This document shows positions 11,633-26,021 of a DNA stretch of 34,967 nt, in pieces; the first letter of the stretch is position 1, and each line of letters opens with the position of its first letter. Origin of the DNA: a virus. Taxonomy: Duplodnaviria > Caudoviricetes. The notes below the pieces were generated by a model, which saw only the letters and a list, made by a program, of their open reading frames with translations, was not told where the DNA came from and searched no databases. Where the stretch lies: the IMG/VR virus record IMGVR_UViG_3300006103_000043, positions 1 through 34,967 of that record. One strand, 5' to 3'. The translations under genes were made by a program, and so were the position numbers.

Positions 11633-11919
11633 CAGTTATGCTCGCAGTGTACGGCTATCGGTACGAGGGTTTTGCCGCCGGTATCTAAACGAACGGCAGT
11701 GTACTCTACGTTTGGGACCAGCTTCGCGTACATGCATTGTTTAGATGCCTGTAGGACTTCGTTATCGCTCATAGCGGTAGCACCATCCCAACCTTTAAGT
11801 TTGCCAATAAGGGGCTCAGGTTTAACAGCAGGGAGATAACGTGGGCTGTCTTCTACCGGACGCGAGGTTGAACATCCTGCGATTAAAGCGACGCTTAAGA
11901 GAAGGAATAGTTTTTTCAT
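11632..11919 (-). CDS. Putative lipoprotein
   Basis: MKK, hydrophobic stretch, then lipobox LIAG-C. Confidence 0.7.
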   Translation of the reverse strand: MKKLFLLLSVALIAGCSTSRPVEDSPRYLPAVKPEPLIGKLKGWDGATAMSDNEVLQASKQCMYAKLVPNVEYTAVRLDTGGKTLVPIAVHCEHN

Positions 11920-19315: not shown

Positions 19316-20791
19316 ATGGATTTATCGCTACGCGAACATCAGCAGGATGTCGTTCAAAAATTGCGTGACGGATTTAAAGCAGGACACAAGAGGCAGTTGC
19401 TTTACGCGCCGACAGGATTTGGTAAGACAGAAGTAGCCATGCACCTTATGAAAGCGGTAGCGGATAAATACAACCGTGCAGCGATGGTGTTAGATCGGAT
19501 CGTACTGGTAGATCAAACCTCCCAGAGGTTAGCCAAGTACGGTATAGATCATGGCGTGATGCAGTCTCAGCATTGGAGATGGAGACCTTACGAAAGGTTG
19601 CAGGTCTGTTCCGCACAGACGCTCGAACGCAGGAAGGATTTCCCGCACTTCGATTTAATCATAGTTGATGAGTGCCACATCTCACGCAAGGCCACGAATG
19701 ATTGGTTGTTAGACAATCCCGATATCAATGTCGTAGGGTTGACTGCTACACCGTTCAGCGCAGGGCTGGGAAACCTATACTCGAATGTTGTGAGTGGTCT
19801 GCCGACCGAGCAGCTAATCAACAAAGGTTGGCTAAAGAAGCTGAAGGTTTATATCTGCAAAGAGATCGACATGACCGGAGCCAAGAAGGTTGCCGGAGAG
19901 TGGTCAACTGGCGATGTAACAGAATCAGGTAAGAAGATTACGGGTGACATCGTAGCCGAGTGGATCAAGAAAACTCATGAAGTTTTTGGTGAGCCCCGCA
20001 AGACGATTTGTTTTTGTGCGGGGGTTGAGCATGGAAAAGATTTGGAACGCCAGTTCAAAGAGCAGGGTTATAACTTTGTCTCGATCTCTTACAAAGAAGA
20101 TGATGAGTTCAAACGACTGACCATTGAAGACTTTGCCCGACCGGACACAACCATTAATGGATTGATTGCGACTGACATCCTCACGCGAGGGTTCGATGTT
20201 CCAGACGTTATGATTGGCATTTCGGCTCGACCTTTTAGCAAGTCTCTATCCTCACACGTTCAACAGATGGGACGTGCCATGCGCTCGTACCCAGACAAAG
20301 ACTTCGCAGTATGGCTTGACCATTCGGGTAATTACATTCGCTTCATGGAAGATTGGGATGACGTGTATTCCAACGGCGTGAGCGATCTGTCTACCGAGGG
20401 CGAGAAGGCCAAGAGGGAACCGACTGAGAAGAAGAAAAAGGATTGTACTTGTCCTAAGTGCAAGGCGTTGATGCTTGGCCCCGTCTGTGCGTGTGGATAC
20501 GTTAGATTGCCCACACAAACGGTTACAAGCGTTCCGGGTGAAATGGTTGAGCTTGGGCAGGGTAACGCGGCTAAAGACGCAAGTAGACAGTTCTACGCAG
20601 AGCTTATGACCTATGCCCGCCAAAGAGGATTCAAGATTGGTTGGGCAGCGCATAAGTACAAAGAGAAACACGGAATCTTCCCGCCGAAGTTCTGGAATGG
20701 CGATCCTCCCAGACAGGTATCGTTGAGCACGAGCGGTTGGATTCGGAGCAGAAACATTGCGTTTGCAAAATCAAAAGCGAGAGCAGCATGA
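19316..20791 (+). CDS. Superfamily 2 DNA helicase (YejH/UvsW-like) with C-terminal Zn finger
   Basis: LREHQ Q-motif, APTGFGKT, DECH, TAT, RGFD, QQMGRAMR, CPKC...CACG. Confidence 0.9.
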   Translation: MDLSLREHQQDVVQKLRDGFKAGHKRQLLYAPTGFGKTEVAMHLMKAVADKYNRAAMVLDRIVLVDQTSQRLAKYGIDHGVMQSQHWRWRPYERLQVCSAQTLERRKDFPHFDLIIVDECHISRKATNDWLLDNPDINVVGLTATPFSAGLGNLYSNVVSGLPTEQLINKGWLKKLKVYICKEIDMTGAKKVAGEWSTGDVTESGKKITGDIVAEWIKKTHEVFGEPRKTICFCAGVEHGKDLERQFKEQGYNFVSISYKEDDEFKRLTIEDFARPDTTINGLIATDILTRGFDVPDVMIGISARPFSKSLSSHVQQMGRAMRSYPDKDFAVWLDHSGNYIRFMEDWDDVYSNGVSDLSTEGEKAKREPTEKKKKDCTCPKCKALMLGPVCACGYVRLPTQTVTSVPGEMVELGQGNAAKDASRQFYAELMTYARQRGFKIGWAAHKYKEKHGIFPPKFWNGDPPRQVSLSTSGWIRSRNIAFAKSKARAA

Positions 20792-21573
20792 CATTTTTAG
20801 ACTTCGCACAAAGCTGCGGATTGGTTGTTGAGTATGTGATTGAGGACAGATGGGTTCGGGTTCCAACGATTGATCATCCGCACAAGCAGAATGGCTCGTA
20901 TAAATTTGTAGGGGATGCAGGATGGGTGCAGAACTTTGCCACGATGGAATCCCCTGTGTTGTGGAAGCCCAAGAACTTTGTACCGGATGATCGGTGGCTA
21001 ACCCGTCGCTTGAAAAACGAAGCTGATCAGGCCGCGAATCAGGCTCTAGCCGCTAAGAAAGCTGCATCCATCATGGCGGCGGCAGAGAGAGCGCACCATC
21101 CATACTTGAACGCGAAAGGATTCCCAGAGGCGCGGGCGTATGTTTGGAAGGATATCTTGGTGCTACCTATGCGGATCGGTAGCCAGCTAGTCGGTTGCCA
21201 GATGATACAACCGGACGGAACCAAAAGGTTTCTGAAGGGGCAGAGGACGAAGGGCGCGAGTTTGCGGATAGATGCGAAGGGGCGCGAGATATTATGCGAG
21301 GGGTTTGCGACTGCCCTTAGTATTCGGCGGGCCATGAAGCACTTGGGCGAAAGATACTCAATCACGGTGGCTTTCAGCGCAGGGAACATGGTAGAGGTGG
21401 CAAAGGGCATAGGTAGCTTGCTAGTCGTAGCGGATCATGATGTGGCAGGGATCAACGCAGCCAAAAAGATTGGCGCGAGGTACTGGATCGGGGAAGAAGG
21501 GCAGGACTTCAACGACTGCGAGCAGTCACAAGGAACTGTCGCAGCCGCTGAAAGTTTGGCTCGTTTTTTATAG
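20788..21573 (+). CDS. Toprim-domain DNA primase-like protein
   Basis: YL.AKG, LVLPM, ILCEGFATALSI, VAFSAGN, VADHD..G, DFND. ATGA overlap with the helicase. Confidence 0.85.
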   Translation: MTFLDFAQSCGLVVEYVIEDRWVRVPTIDHPHKQNGSYKFVGDAGWVQNFATMESPVLWKPKNFVPDDRWLTRRLKNEADQAANQALAAKKAASIMAAAERAHHPYLNAKGFPEARAYVWKDILVLPMRIGSQLVGCQMIQPDGTKRFLKGQRTKGASLRIDAKGREILCEGFATALSIRRAMKHLGERYSITVAFSAGNMVEVAKGIGSLLVVADHDVAGINAAKKIGARYWIGEEGQDFNDCEQSQGTVAAAESLARFL

Positions 21574-21588
21574 GTAGCTAACCAGTCG

Positions 21589-21774
21589 CTACTCATCTCT
21601 ATCTTCTGGTTCGACCAATTCCATATCGACAATTCTAAGGTCAGGATCGGTTAGCTCAAAATCCATCTCTGATATGTCTGCGCCCGCTTGTTCGTATGCA
21701 TCATCGATATCAAACGCGGTTATGTAAAACGTATCGGTATACGTCAGCGTCATTCTGCATTCATAGCGTGGCAT
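21589..21774 (-). CDS. Small acidic hypothetical protein
   Basis: 61 aa, AAGGA RBS, very D/E-rich. Confidence 0.65.
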   Translation of the reverse strand: MPRYECRMTLTYTDTFYITAFDIDDAYEQAGADISEMDFELTDPDLRIVDMELVEPEDRDE

Positions 21775-21784
21775 GGCGTCATCC

Positions 21785-21946
21785 TTATGAAATTTGAGTT
21801 ATGTTAATAACTTTGTAGGCGGGATATGCTTTCTCGGCTTGTAATTCTGCATGGTCGACATCCGTTGCTTTGCACTCAAAAGTAACAAGAAAACGATCTT
21901 CAATGAATTCTCGCAGGGTAACGATAAAAGCTGAATAGGTTTTCAT
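21785..21946 (-). CDS. Hypothetical protein, 53 aa, not in the ORF track
   Basis: MKTYSAFIVTLREFIEDRFLVTFECKATDVDHAELQAEKAYPAYKVINITQIS. GGGGAGG RBS, ATGA overlap. Confidence 0.65.
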   Translation of the reverse strand: MKTYSAFIVTLREFIEDRFLVTFECKATDVDHAELQAEKAYPAYKVINITQIS

Positions 21947-22110
21947 TCTGCTGCCTCCCCATAGTACGAGCGTATTGCTTCAATTCCCAAGTAAGAAAGT
22001 ATCGCTTCTTCTAAATTCATTTCATCCCAATCAAAAATGCCTCTGGCCTCATCCTCGTTTATGTAGTCCATTAGGTAGCTTGCCAGTCGCTGCGCGTTGA
22101 TCTCGCTCAT
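21943..22110 (-). CDS. Acidic hypothetical protein, 55 aa, not in the ORF track
   Basis: MSEINAQRLASYLMDYINEDEARGIFDWDEMNLEEAILSYLGIEAIRSYYGEAAE. GAGG RBS, ATGA overlap. Confidence 0.65.
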   Translation of the reverse strand: MSEINAQRLASYLMDYINEDEARGIFDWDEMNLEEAILSYLGIEAIRSYYGEAAE

Positions 22111-22349
22111 GCTGCCACCTCAACAATTAAATAACCGTCATGTTTAATTGTAAAAAATTCAATTCGGTGGTTTTTTGAATGGTGCCGCGAAACCTCCAAG
22201 TAAACCACTGTTTCGGTTTCCTGCCAGCCGTTTTCAATACTCTCAGCCCACGCATTTACGATTGAGTCGGTTGGGATAATGTTAGTGTACTCGTTAAGAA
22301 TGTTATAAATTTGATCCAAACCTTCGGGCGTAATAATTAAAGTTTTCAT
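22107..22349 (-). CDS. Hypothetical protein
   Basis: 80 aa, GAGGAGAC RBS. Confidence 0.65.
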   Translation of the reverse strand: MKTLIITPEGLDQIYNILNEYTNIIPTDSIVNAWAESIENGWQETETVVYLEVSRHHSKNHRIEFFTIKHDGYLIVEVAA

Positions 22350-22360
22350 TCTGTCTCCTC

Positions 22361-22693
22361 TTAGAATTGTTCAAACAAAATGGTTGTAGCAGTTTCGCCA
22401 ACAACGGAAGTTCTATCTGACAACCAATCAAAAATTAGCTGATTGTCATCCTCGTCATCAGGATCAATAAACTCGGATCGATCTAAGTCGTAATCGTCAA
22501 TAATCTCGTCACGCGTCATTTCAACGTACTCGCAGCATAGCCCGATCGGATCAAATTCTATTTCTTCCCCTAATTCATCTTCTAAATTTTCAAGATACTC
22601 AAACAAAATACCAAGCCCATCATAAGTAAAATTTGTTCTTCCCATTTTTGCGAAGGCATCTCTAAAGTCGTATACGTTGACTGTTTGTTTCAT
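22361..22693 (-). CDS. Highly acidic early protein (FRDAF...LFEYLE...EFDPIGLCCEY family), DNA-mimic candidate
   Basis: 110 aa from MKQTV with ~31 D/E versus 7 K/R by manual count. AAGGA RBS downstream of the ribozyme. Confidence 0.7.
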   Translation of the reverse strand: MKQTVNVYDFRDAFAKMGRTNFTYDGLGILFEYLENLEDELGEEIEFDPIGLCCEYVEMTRDEIIDDYDLDRSEFIDPDDEDDNQLIFDWLSDRTSVVGETATTILFEQF

Positions 22694-22726
22694 TTTATTT
22701 TCCTTGGTTGTGCGCTCTATTGCGCG

Positions 22727-22797
22727 GGTTATGACCGCATCCCTGCGGTTTCGGCTCTTAAAGCCCAAGCGGGTAGCTAACCCGTCGTCAGATAACC
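22727..22797 (-). ncRNA. Type I hammerhead ribozyme, variant with a 19-nt core insertion
   Basis: Minus strand reads GGUUAU-CUGACGA-[CGGGU UAGCU ACCCG CUUG]-GGCUU UAA GAGCC-GAAA-CCGCA GGGA UGCGG-UC-AUAACC. Confidence 0.75.
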
Positions 22798-22804
22798 TTT
22801 TTTG

Positions 22805-22936
22805 TTACATTGATAAAAAAATCACTACCCATACATAAACTGCAATCAACGCAGCAAGCCCGCCCACGATCTGAACCCAAAGTGGGGGTGGTGGTGTAAT
22901 GCCTAGCCGTTCATATCGGCTGATTGAATCTTTCAT
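22805..22936 (-). CDS. Small single-pass membrane protein, 43 aa, not in the ORF track
   Basis: MKDSISRYERLGITPPPPLWVQIVGGLAALIAVYVWVVIFLSM. AAGGAGAC RBS. Confidence 0.65.
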   Translation of the reverse strand: MKDSISRYERLGITPPPPLWVQIVGGLAALIAVYVWVVIFLSM

Positions 22937-23000
22937 AATGTCTCCTTTTATCTTCTGCATTTTCTACACATACACTCAGCGGTATGACCTAGTAAGTAAA

Positions 23001-23354
23001 TCATGCGGCCTCCTTCGCCATATCAGCTAAAAATTTATTAAGCGCGGTATCGGCCTCCGCAGTCGCGCGAAAGATCATGTCTCCCCAATAGTCGTTTAGG
23101 TTTAGAAAATCTTTTGAGTTTTCATACAAACAACCGCCTAGATAATCGGTTCCGAATTCGTGCCCGCCGATGAAAACCTGAACGCGGGCGCAAAACCACT
23201 CCCAAACTTCACGATCAATTTTGTCCACGATCTCAGCTATGTTATGACAAGTATCGTCAAACAATTCAGCGGGATGAATCTCCTCTGGTCGGATGCTAGT
23301 GACGATTTCATACTTCCCTAAGTGGTGACGATCTATTTCATTCCAGTTATCCAT
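23001..23354 (-). CDS. Conserved phage hypothetical protein (WFCARV...DYLGGCLY)
   Basis: 117 aa, acidic, AAGGGAG RBS. Confidence 0.7.
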   Translation of the reverse strand: MDNWNEIDRHHLGKYEIVTSIRPEEIHPAELFDDTCHNIAEIVDKIDREVWEWFCARVQVFIGGHEFGTDYLGGCLYENSKDFLNLNDYWGDMIFRATAEADTALNKFLADMAKEAA

Positions 23355-23372
23355 TTTTAATTCTCCCTTTAT

Positions 23373-23388
23373 GCGCCCCGAAGGGCGC
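23373..23388 (-). other. GC-rich cUUCGg hairpin between genes, without U-tract
   Basis: GCGCCC-UUCG-GGGCGC immediately upstream of an RBS. Confidence 0.6.
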
Positions 23389-23394
23389 GGTTAA

Positions 23395-23661
23395 TTATTG
23401 TTCAAATGCCATTTGTTCGATTAACAAGGGCGCGGTTTCCGCTTCCTCGATGCTATTCGATACCAAAGCGGCATTAGCTTTTGCGGTATTCGATGCATCG
23501 GTGCGAATAAGGGCGAAAACCTTCGATATTGTTGCGGATGATAGGACGATCTCTTGTTTTCCGGTTTCGCCTACCAGAGTGACAAGTCCAACAAAAACCT
23601 TGTTCTTTTCTTCATCGTTCCATTTGTTTGCTTGGCGAATTTCAAGGGATTTTACTTGCAT
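23395..23661 (-). CDS. Hypothetical protein
   Basis: 88 aa, AAGGAG RBS downstream of the ribozyme. Confidence 0.7.
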   Translation of the reverse strand: MQVKSLEIRQANKWNDEEKNKVFVGLVTLVGETGKQEIVLSSATISKVFALIRTDASNTAKANAALVSNSIEEAETAPLLIEQMAFEQ

Positions 23662-23699
23662 GAATGTTGCTCCTTTTTTGGTTGTGCCCTATGTCGGGC

Positions 23700-23751
23700 G
23701 GGTAAGACCGCTAGTGAGCGGTTTCGGCGCGTCACGCCTCGTCAGTTACCC
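23700..23751 (-). ncRNA. Type I hammerhead ribozyme (canonical core)
   Basis: Minus strand reads GGGUAA-CUGACGA-GGCG UGACG CGCC-GAAA-CCGCU CACU AGCGG-UC-UUACCC. All three stems and the full catalytic core are present. Confidence 0.92.
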
Positions 23752-23823
23752 TTTGGGTTTGTACTTCTGTAAGCTCGCAGCGTACGCATTCCAGAATTGT
23801 TGTCTTTTCTCGGCGTCAGTCAT
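23746..23823 (-). CDS. Possible 25-aa peptide ending in ribozyme stem I
   Basis: MTDAEKRQQFWNAYAASLQKYKPKG. ATG overlaps the end of the upstream gene and the TAA sits in stem I. Confidence 0.35.
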   Translation of the reverse strand: MTDAEKRQQFWNAYAASLQKYKPKG

Positions 23824-24094
23824 TTTCTGGATTCCCATAAGCGGATTCGATTTCACGTCCTGAATGAGCGCATATAAGCGGTTCACCTTCCCAATGCACG
23901 AACGCTCCCATACATTGCCAACCGTCACGCTCGGCATGCTTGGTTGACCACAATATTTTCTTGTAATTTTCCTTTGCGCTCTGCCAGTCCAGAACCTCGC
24001 CGTCACTCATACACAGGGCAAGCGGGTAACCTCCTAAAATGGTGTACCCTTCATTGCGGATAAAATACTTAAGTGTGTTTATTGCTTTACTCAT
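23816..24094 (-). CDS. Conserved phage hypothetical protein (GGYPL...DG..L...IESAYG)
   Basis: 92 aa, GGAGG RBS. Confidence 0.7.
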   Translation of the reverse strand: MSKAINTLKYFIRNEGYTILGGYPLALCMSDGEVLDWQSAKENYKKILWSTKHAERDGWQCMGAFVHWEGEPLICAHSGREIESAYGNPEND

Positions 24095-24313
24095 TTAAAC
24101 TTCCTCCAAAAAAGCGCATACACAAGCGTGAACGGCGTTATATCGCACACAATCACCTGAATCCCATTCCTTGCGGAAACTGTAACCAGTTTGGCGTGAG
24201 ACTTTATTGATTGCTCCGCGATAAGTATTGGCAAAGACGGTGAACCGTTTCGCCCAAGAGTAATTCGCTTCACCCCCGAAGGTGTCGGTTATCTCAATTT
24301 GGTAAGTATTCAT
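24095..24313 (-). CDS. Conserved phage hypothetical protein (EITDTFGGEANYSW)
   Basis: 72 aa, abuts both neighbours. Confidence 0.7.
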   Translation of the reverse strand: MNTYQIEITDTFGGEANYSWAKRFTVFANTYRGAINKVSRQTGYSFRKEWDSGDCVRYNAVHACVCAFLEEV

Positions 24314-24508
24314 TTATTCCCCCAATTCAGTTATAAGTGTAACGGTCGCGCCAAAGCGCTTAAGCTCTTGCAGAACAGAATCTTGAGGATCACGCGCTGC
24401 AAAGCGGTATCCGTCTGGCATAGTGACAAGGTGAACGCCCCCATATTCACAAAGGTTGAATCTTTCGCAAATTAAAGAATCCTTTGGGTTCATAGCTAAG
24501 ATACTCAT
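24314..24508 (-). CDS. Hypothetical protein
   Basis: 64 aa, AGGAG RBS, ATGA overlap. Confidence 0.6.
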   Translation of the reverse strand: MSILAMNPKDSLICERFNLCEYGGVHLVTMPDGYRFAARDPQDSVLQELKRFGATVTLITELGE

Positions 24509-24684
24509 AGCGATTTAATCTCCTGCTGGACTTCGATCTGGTAACCAAGCCGCTTGATTGTGGCAATGGCCGCGCGGGTAAGTGTCTTTGTTCCGGCTAG
24601 GTCGGCTAGAAGTTTGGCTTGTTCGCATATAGGACGGATGACTTCGTTCCCATACTGATTTGCTATAGATACAGTTATGATCAT
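24505..24684 (-). CDS. Conserved phage hypothetical protein (YG...P.C..AK..A.LAGTKTLT)
   Basis: 59 aa from MIITV. ATGA overlap with the upstream gene. Confidence 0.7.
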   Translation of the reverse strand: MIITVSIANQYGNEVIRPICEQAKLLADLAGTKTLTRAAIATIKRLGYQIEVQQEIKSL

Positions 24685-24878
24685 GCTTTCCCCCCATCCA
24701 GAATCACTTGATACATATTCCAACCAAGCGTGACTACTGAATCGCCTGTGGTAAGTAAGTGCTCAATCATAGAACGATCAACCGAGTGCCAACCTACCCA
24801 GTCAGCGCGTTCGCGCATTACTTCGTGCCAACCCCTTAGTTCGGTTTTGGCGTGGTATGCAATCATTGGTGTATTCAT
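24681..24878 (-). CDS. Hypothetical protein
   Basis: 65 aa from MNTPM, AGGAGAC RBS. Confidence 0.6.
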   Translation of the reverse strand: MNTPMIAYHAKTELRGWHEVMRERADWVGWHSVDRSMIEHLLTTGDSVVTLGWNMYQVILDGGKA

Positions 24879-24889
24879 TGTCTTGTCTC

Positions 24890-25090
24890 CTATAAACGTA
24901 CTATTGGGCAACCCTGCACTTCCATTTTTGTTACATAGTACTTAACGCATAACAGGAGTGCTTCCCAAGTGAGTGCGCTAATAGAGGCGGTTTCACATAC
25001 GATCTCTCCATCGTCATAAACTATCGCTACATGATGACCGTGCACTAAAAACTTACCTACGGGCCACGGCTTACGAGCTGGTGATGTCAT
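24890..25090 (-). CDS. Hypothetical protein, first gene of the early operon
   Basis: 66 aa, AAGGGAG RBS, promoter upstream. Confidence 0.6.
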   Translation of the reverse strand: MTSPARKPWPVGKFLVHGHHVAIVYDDGEIVCETASISALTWEALLLCVKYYVTKMEVQGCPIVRL

Positions 25091-25146
25091 TTTGTATTCT
25101 CCCTTTAGTTAAACATGAAAGTGCATGTGCGCTTTCCATGTGTTGC

Positions 25147-25174
25147 ATCCTATCACAATTAATCCATGTGTCAA
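25147..25174 (-). promoter_or_regulatory. Sigma70-type promoter of the early operon
   Basis: TTGACA-16 nt-TAGGAT with extended TG, flanked by CACATG motifs. Confidence 0.6.
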
Positions 25175-25289
25175 TAGGTCAACGCAAAATATTTTATTAC
25201 CTTACAAACAATGTCAGGATTGGTAAGGTTGCGAGATATAGAGCGAAGGATTAACATGCGCTAAATCCACAATTTATACCTGAGCATAT

Positions 25290-26021
25290 ATGAGCCATAA
25301 AATGACGAGAGCGCAGGCGCGGGAAGCACTTCAGCAAGTGCCTATTGATTATGTGATTACTGGTGACAATAGGCAGAGACTCACACCGAAACAAAGGGAA
25401 TTTGCTCGCCAGATGGTGACAGCACCAACCAAGTCCGCAGCATACCGGAACGCATATAACACGAACGGAAAGCCTAAGAACGTTCATTCTGATGCAGCTA
25501 AGCTCTTGCGTGATCCCAGAATCGTCACAGAGATCGAGGCGTTGAGGTTGGCGAGTGAGGCAGAAAAACATCGAACCCCTGCTCAATTACGGGCTCTGGT
25601 AACGGGGCAGCTAGTCCAACACGCTCTAGATGATAGCGTTCCCCCTGCCACACGGATCCGCGCTCTGGAGTTATTAGGCAAGCTAACGGAAGTTGCTTCA
25701 TTCACTGAGCGCAGGGAAACAGTCGTTCATCATGCTAGTGCCGATATCAGGGCTAGACTGATTGAGCAGCTCCGCTCGGTCAACGTAGTGGATCAGGATG
25801 ACGGTTCAGACCTACTAGCCGAGCTTTCCGCAGACCGCGCCATTTTAGCGGAATCGCCTGCGCCGGACGCCCACCCATCCCCACCCCCCCAAATCGGGCC
25901 GGATTCTGCCGATGCAGCTAGGCATACTATTCCCAACACTCAATCACCCAATTTTGAGATAGCACCCGAAGAAATGGAAATCCTGCGCCCAGAAGACCCC
26001 CCCATGTCTGATGAGGAATGA
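25290..26021 (+). CDS. Terminase small subunit-like protein
   Basis: LTPKQREFA...AAYRNAY...AAKLLRDPRI HTH and RIRALELLGK. Upstream of terL. Confidence 0.7.
   Translation: MSHKMTRAQAREALQQVPIDYVITGDNRQRLTPKQREFARQMVTAPTKSAAYRNAYNTNGKPKNVHSDAAKLLRDPRIVTEIEALRLASEAEKHRTPAQLRALVTGQLVQHALDDSVPPATRIRALELLGKLTEVASFTERRETVVHHASADIRARLIEQLRSVNVVDQDDGSDLLAELSADRAILAESPAPDAHPSPPPQIGPDSADAARHTIPNTQSPNFEIAPEEMEILRPEDPPMSDEE

Follow-up and report, generated by a model that had tools for sequence, protein, structure and literature searches.

Clustered phage hammerhead ribozymes cut polycistronic RNA in vitro and have been proposed to process long transcripts, according to the available part of the original account (PMC3088659). 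In known hammerhead alignments, no insertion longer than 1-2 nt follows the conserved CUGANGA block (Eckert et al. 2023, PMC10085705). The accessible sections of the work on the CChMVd ribozyme (PMC3705267) describe an extra A10 between A9 and G10.1 with which the ribozyme is active; a U at this bulge position raised the rate of trans-cleavage 3-4-fold, and a single C or G at the same position was strongly detrimental. Here we analyse a phage hammerhead in which this very step carries a hairpin, together with other viral hammerheads built in the same way. The recurring four-way architecture is the valuable part of this analysis, and the regulatory switch once proposed for it is the weak part.

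The DNA analysed, hereafter the window, is the entire linear virus record IMGVR_UViG_3300006103_000043 (34,967 nt, completeness 58%). The virus is a tailed phage; the window contains its terminase, portal, head, helicase and primase genes. The top cultured-phage matches of its terminase are 54-59% identical, Pelagibacter phages HTVC027P and HTVC023P among them. The inserted hammerhead lies among 14 consecutive small genes on the minus strand (25090-21589), with the primase on one side and the small terminase on the other. Early operons typically have this layout, and we infer that the 14 genes form one early transcript. Directly upstream of the operon lies a sigma-70-like site (25174-25147, minus strand, 10/12, extended -10), the best of a promoter scan that returned 6 sites in the region against 7.3 expected by chance. 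The small gene upstream of the ribozyme (22805..22960, minus strand) encodes 51 aa with a hydrophobic C-terminus, or 43 aa if started at the second ATG (22936, preceded by GGAG), and has neither a PHROG nor a Pfam match. Its stop codon, TAA at 22807-22805, is indeed close to the ribozyme, as had been claimed, with 7 nt separating it from stem I.

A type I hammerhead is encoded on the minus strand at 22727-22797; its core is intact and carries a 19-nt insertion. This bears out the preliminary description, which had claimed an inserted hairpin plus CUUG between CUGACGA and stem II, giving a four-way junction; every one of these parts was found in its place. All coordinates of this locus refer to the minus strand. 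Stem I has 6 bp, formed by GGUUAU (22792..22797) and AUAACC (22727..22732), with a pairing probability of 0.75-0.84 in constructs of 75-111 nt. The catalytic core CUGACGA (C3-A9; 22785..22791) matches the consensus. The insert (22766-22784) lies between A9 and stem II and consists of a hairpin of 5 Watson-Crick pairs with a 5-nt loop, which begins at the first base 3' of A9 (22770..22784, pair probability 0.90-0.98), and of the linker CUUG (22766..22769), which leads to stem II. There follow stem-loop II (22753..22765; 5 bp with G10.1-C11.1 and a 3-nt loop, its length and geometry being those of an insert-free paralog), the conserved GAAA (G12-A15.1; 22749..22752) and stem-loop III (22734..22748), whose 6 bp include A15.1-U16.1, with A15.1 at 22749. 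By analogy with known hammerheads, the cut at the GUC triplet (22733-22735) is predicted between 22733 and 22732, 39 nt before the downstream ATG. Between this site and the ATG are a GC tail hairpin of 4 bp, common to the paralog (22712..22725), which would cap the 3' cleavage product, and a Shine-Dalgarno-like AAGGA (22701..22705).

A descriptor search found 2 type I hammerheads in the window, the inserted copy and its paralog; in 300 dinucleotide-shuffled versions of the window it found 0. Only 0.25% of shuffles of the insert gave a 5-bp hairpin that starts at the first inserted base and ends 4-5 nt before stem II. An alternative register that pairs G(+2) with C11.1 is penalised by about 6 kcal/mol when the segment is taken alone, a figure that is an overestimate. 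In a three-way junction, A9 and stem II are separated by 1-2 inserted nt at most, against 19 in this copy. At gathering thresholds, the Rfam models matched nothing in the window; with E relaxed to 10, a search of 20700-25300 still gave no hammerhead and missed the paralog too. Hence, we class the locus as a variant of the type I phage hammerhead. The hammerhead fold is the minimum free energy (MFE) structure of the 75- and 111-nt constructs. With at least 50 upstream nt, the probability of stem I in the inserted copy drops to about 0.01 by pairing with the upstream coding sequence. Since the same model gives plain copies anything between 0.0 and 0.96, these folding predictions are weak in both directions. 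By inspection, the inserted copy shows no Watson-Crick pseudoknot, nor is another contact evident that would join stem I to stem II, non-canonical contacts being outside the method.

About 950 nt upstream lies a paralogous, canonical type I hammerhead without insert, absent from the preliminary description (23686..23751, minus strand; core 23745-23739; predicted cut between 23706 and 23705). The alignment score of the two copies, 82, was reached by 0/300 shuffles, and both continue with the tail hairpin and then ACAACCAA. Of 21 pairs, 5 have undergone compensatory changes between the copies and 0 are broken, a sign of selection on the stems, although these changes may predate the insert. Stem-loop II is equal in length and shape in both copies, so the 19 nt were truly inserted between A9 and G10.1. 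The 5' strand of the paralog's stem I also contains the TAA of a reading frame.

Other features of the operon touch on these two copies. GC-rich short hairpins stand directly before the ribosome-binding site in three operon gaps (23372-23389, 23686-23699 and 22712-22725), the one at 23372-23389 without a ribozyme core. A GGUC-AUACCGC word in the intergenic stretch 22978-22995 (minus strand) resembles the 3' half of the hammerheads and is possibly a decayed third copy, a similarity so weak that 6 and 17 of 300 shuffles equal it. Orphan trans-cleavage sites are not enriched along the operon: the minus strand has 9 and 8, each count including the ribozyme's own cleavage site, and the plus strand 16 and 9. 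The locus of the inserted hammerhead is 100% identical in two more assembled contigs (L001/L444 over 3,900 nt and L307 over 1,059 nt), which may share reads with the window. Sequence searches for close relatives returned these identical contigs and no diverged homolog. BLAST against cultured phages gave a single 22-nt chance match, and in 50 records that contain a homolog of the acidic gene or of the primase, a pattern search had 3 matching records and zero inserted hammerheads.

We searched collections of viral, metagenome and genome sequences, using patterns that leave room for a long gap 3' of CUGANGA. The descriptor, and in part the patterns, required stems I-III, so that their pairing is not independent evidence; the inserted hairpin was demanded by no search pattern or descriptor. 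Scan and follow-up BLAST together gave at least 11 more hammerheads, of types I and III and from viral or metagenomic sequences, with a hairpin directly after CUGANGA, at least 10 of them four-way and 1 five-way. Including the window copy, the set contains at least 11 four-way sequences and one five-way sequence, and these 12 members represent about 4-6 lineages by inspection rather than 12 independent events. The 602 sequences collected contain 32 distinct type I candidates: 13 have no insert, 7 have a single nucleotide at A9/G10.1 (U in 6) and 12 have at least 7 nt, counts that give no frequency because the patterns were enriched for long inserts. In 9/12 of the last group, the hairpin starts at the first base after A9. 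When type III is added, 12/15 distinct candidates with an insert of at least 7 nt begin with a Watson-Crick hairpin, of which 11 have a linker of 4-5 nt.

The type I members besides the window copy are L149, L162, L278, L582 and L593, which form one lineage (84% column identity) with a pseudoknot between loop II and the 3' tail, then L167 and L385, and finally L147 (580-680, minus strand), which has two hairpins, 34 nt in all, between A9 and stem II, a long stem III and a five-way junction. Among the type III members, L232 and L284 have the layout closest to the window copy (a 5-bp hairpin, CUUG and a 5-bp stem II). A BLAST search with L593 led to the haloarchaeal viruses HVTV-1 and HVTV-2, in which an identical inserted type III copy, with a 4-bp hairpin and a 5-nt linker, lies between genes 26 and 27. 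HVTV-1 has two type III hammerheads, neither annotated, in successive intergenic gaps, and one of the two is inserted (L602:2965-3065, KC117377.1 about 11660-11745; the second at L602:2294-2356), and we found no literature linking this virus with a hammerhead. A plain or 1-U copy stands beside an inserted one in at least five records (G000, G002, G003, G004 and HVTV-1).

All core nucleotides and G10.1-C11.1 are intact in 12/12 inserted members, GUC is kept in all nine type I inserted members, and the pseudoknot between loop II and the 3' tail is intact in five type I members. The linkers are CUUUG (five times), CUUG (three times), CAUCG, AACA and AAAA; the linker formed part of the pattern that alone recovered L232 and L284. 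The first hairpin pair is GC in ten members, CG in one and UA in one, with position 11.1 constantly C, which indicates that the +1 base follows the hairpin and not 11.1. When the hairpins are lined up by distance from A9, which falls short of formal covariation, the successive pairs vary as GC/CG/UA, CG/GC, GC/CG and CG/GC. We also considered a one-pair stem II closing a branched loop. This is possible for 10 members with G at +1 and does not fit the window copy or L147; it costs about 9-11 kcal/mol, an overestimate, in the 8 G(+1) segments tested.

Some sequences were dropped from the family: L322 has a 7-nt insert without a hairpin, and L313 and L459 have a 14-nt insert with no hairpin at +1 and an ambiguous, branched stem II. 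The latter two (L313:500 and L459:500, from a Clostridiales MAG) are pseudoknot-type hammerheads whose 14-nt unstructured region or branched stem II makes them neither plain nor four-way. Rfam missed every inserted copy tested. A scan of genome contigs showed no clean four-way member among the at least 120 loci listed, and no type II hammerhead with a long insert was present among the sequences examined with a descriptor that penalised such forms. We also noted that one four-way hammerhead is followed, about 400 nt downstream, by a Twister-sister ribozyme that scores above gathering (L591:979-1053, 53 bits). In the Streptomyces phages Urza, Daudau and Janus (L605, L606 and L607), the early region holds five to seven type II hammerheads per 5-7 kb, all unannotated, with an OCR-like antirestriction gene among those of Urza.

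The gene downstream of the inserted hammerhead (22361..22693, minus strand) encodes a 110-aa protein that the preliminary description had called highly acidic and placed under the control of the ribozyme. Its acidity stands (31 D+E and 7 K+R), and the gating is not supported: 59 homolog loci have no hammerhead in the 150 nt upstream (the CUGANGA word occurs in 5, and 0 passed the descriptor). The protein, for which 25 homologs were found, belongs to phrog_9974, phage proteins of unknown function. Searches for DNA mimics like Ocr or ArdA gave no Pfam match and no PDB sequence match. The structural model is confident (pLDDT 88); with it, Foldseek reached a best E of 0.8 and VIA a best Z of 5.4, and BFVD gave uncharacterised phage proteins only. 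With no clear PDB match, nothing ties this protein specifically to a need for gating.

The gating was the last step of a broader proposal, in which the 5' arm of the insert exchanges with stem I and ribosomes at the upstream stop, or a trans factor, toggle between the two folds. The complementarity on which it was built is there: 22784-22778 is perfectly complementary to 22731-22725 (minus strand), and a 7-bp complement between insert and tail is uncommon (0.35-1.3% of random hairpins, in a post-hoc test). The two folds are also near-equal, with 35% in the alternative one, before the tail hairpin has been transcribed, and, given the length of its footprint, a ribosome terminating upstream would extend to the first bases of stem I. 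However, for the alternative pairing to form, the insert's own 5-bp hairpin, which presumably forms first in transcription, has to melt, and one base has to come from the 4-bp tail hairpin that competes with this pairing. In constrained ensembles at 37 °C, the alternative fold lies 3.7 kcal/mol (4.5 by MFE) above the hammerhead fold, with a predicted occupancy of 1% in the 111-nt context, which does not agree with a conditional ribozyme of two folds. This occupancy rises to 6% under a ribosome-like mask over stem I and to 23% when everything 5' of the insert is removed; in longer contexts, stem I is lost to the upstream coding sequence and not to the insert. The complementarity between insert and cleaved strand covers 7 bp in the window copy but 2-5 bp in the other members, at least 11 in number, and the 3' partner ACCCG is also found in the insert-free paralog. 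The toggling by ribosomes likewise finds little in its favour, since the stop is equally near many plain copies: it falls within -6 to +7 nt of stem I in 14/20 copies with no insert or a 1-nt insert, and in 5/9 hairpin-bearing type I copies by a crude open reading frame rule. Such proximity in plain copies may be a matter of tight packing or of a general link between cleavage and translation. A strand-exchange switch, with its toggle and its gated gene, is thus unlikely. The 7-bp pairing is likely a by-product of repeated ACCCG and GGUUA words, and at most a transient misfold. The insert matches 14/16 nt of stem-loop II of L304 and 13/16 nt of that of L149, and by inspection it resembles both arms of the paralog's stem I. 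Judging from these likenesses, it could derive from a stem-loop II of that kind or from the stem I arms, and either origin would give the complement as a by-product.

The same likenesses are what a recombination scar would leave, and they suit a reading in which the insert is a recent addition that cripples the window copy: this ribozyme would be dead or very slow and awaiting decay, and the cutting would fall to the paralog. Eckert et al. 2023 (PMC10085705) assume that CUGANGA and its stems cannot be interrupted. The window copy is an odd family member, with C at +1 and a loop that is not a tetraloop, and C at the bulge position harms CChMVd in the portions of that work at hand; only identical copies were found, hence there is no sign of persistence over time. 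Yet no core or stem position is damaged, and the same layout has persisted in other lineages with compensatory changes and intact pseudoknots, which makes a crippled copy rather unlikely. At the other extreme, the arm could be a functional module of the whole family, either a structural strut or a hairpin bound by a protein, which would stabilise the active fold or tie cleavage to a partner, without strand exchange. The fixed geometry argues for it (a hairpin of 3-5 bp at +1 and a linker of 4-5 nt), as do the C...G linkers of 9/11 four-way members, the loops, of which 9/12 are purine-rich 4-nt loops beginning with G, and the genomes that keep inserted and plain copies side by side. Loop and linker sequences nevertheless differ between lineages, the linkers of L232 and L284 were selected by the search pattern, and there is no known partner; we regard this role as unlikely. 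The linker and the first G of stem II (22769-22765) can pair with the ribosome-binding site (22707-22703, minus strand), and this pairing is predicted at 1% normally and at 14% with stem I masked; such linker pairing is no better than in shuffled controls in 9/9 members scored (P 0.06-0.86). Quite unlikely, finally, is the boldest combination of these ideas, in which A9/G10.1 is a natural plug-in site for regulatory hairpins in phages and archaeal viruses, with one plain and one controllable copy per early operon, and the window copy is a strand-exchange switch gated by a protein or the ribosome during transcription.

Our preferred reading, somewhat more probable than its negation, is that the four-way variant still cuts itself after the GUC at 22733 and that the arm is tolerated and does not act as an on/off switch. 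Because the A9/G10.1 step takes a 1-nt bulge, the arm would be expected to loop out there from the stack of stems II and III while the core folds, changing the rate at most moderately. Cuts after 22733 and, at the paralog, after 23706 would free a 973-nt piece with three genes. The downstream genes would receive a new 5'-OH end, protected by the GC hairpin, 39 nt before the AUG. Cleavage would then tune the stability or amount of the mRNA, as proposed for other phage hammerheads.

If any member of the family cleaves, it overturns the search assumption that CUGANGA directly adjoins stem II. It would also mean that current descriptors and Rfam models miss four- and five-way hammerheads in phages and archaeal viruses, and that there is a natural, tolerated insertion site beside the active site, useful for ribozyme engineering. 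Plain and inserted copies side by side, including those of the cultured virus HVTV-1, provide a built-in controlled comparison for the role of phage hammerheads. The four-way layout is not described in the literature searched, which covers the text of the Perreault 2011 supplements (their figures are pictures) and leaves subscription papers outside reach; it is also absent from the accessible parts of PMC6765202, PMC6155905, PMC12192606, PMC13481778 and bioRxiv 2026.10.21.760802.

Among known systems, the non-circularly permuted hammerheads (type SGC and others; Eckert et al. 2023, PMC10085705) similarly combine an intact core with an unusual architecture missed by standard models. The window copy, in contrast to them, has the ordinary block order C-G-S, which excludes the permutations SGC, CSG and GCS, and its novelty is the interrupted block C. 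The RAGATH-1 or PK hammerhead (RF03152, PMC11300833) is likewise a phage-associated variant with an additional stem-loop. As far as the available text of its description goes, that stem-loop sits on helix I with loop II as its pairing partner, and a lone G10.1-C11.1 pair makes up stem II, whereas the window copy has a stem II of 5 bp and its extra arm in the core. With this stem II, and no RF03152 match on the window copy, identity with that class is rejected. The type I hammerheads that flank small genes in phages and prophages (Perreault et al. 2011, PMC3088659; RF00163) are alike in core, GUC site, stem order and clustered intergenic copies; in the part of that account consulted, their insertions are of 1-2 nt (2a/2b, 6a and 13a), and the window copy has a structured insert of 19 nt between A9 and G10.1. 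In the CChMVd (+) hammerhead (De la Pena and Flores 2001, as relayed in the sections available of PMC3705267), the insertion falls at the same phosphodiester, but there it is one nucleotide in a viroid, and here it is a hairpin and linker of 14-19 nt (34 nt in L147) in phage DNA.
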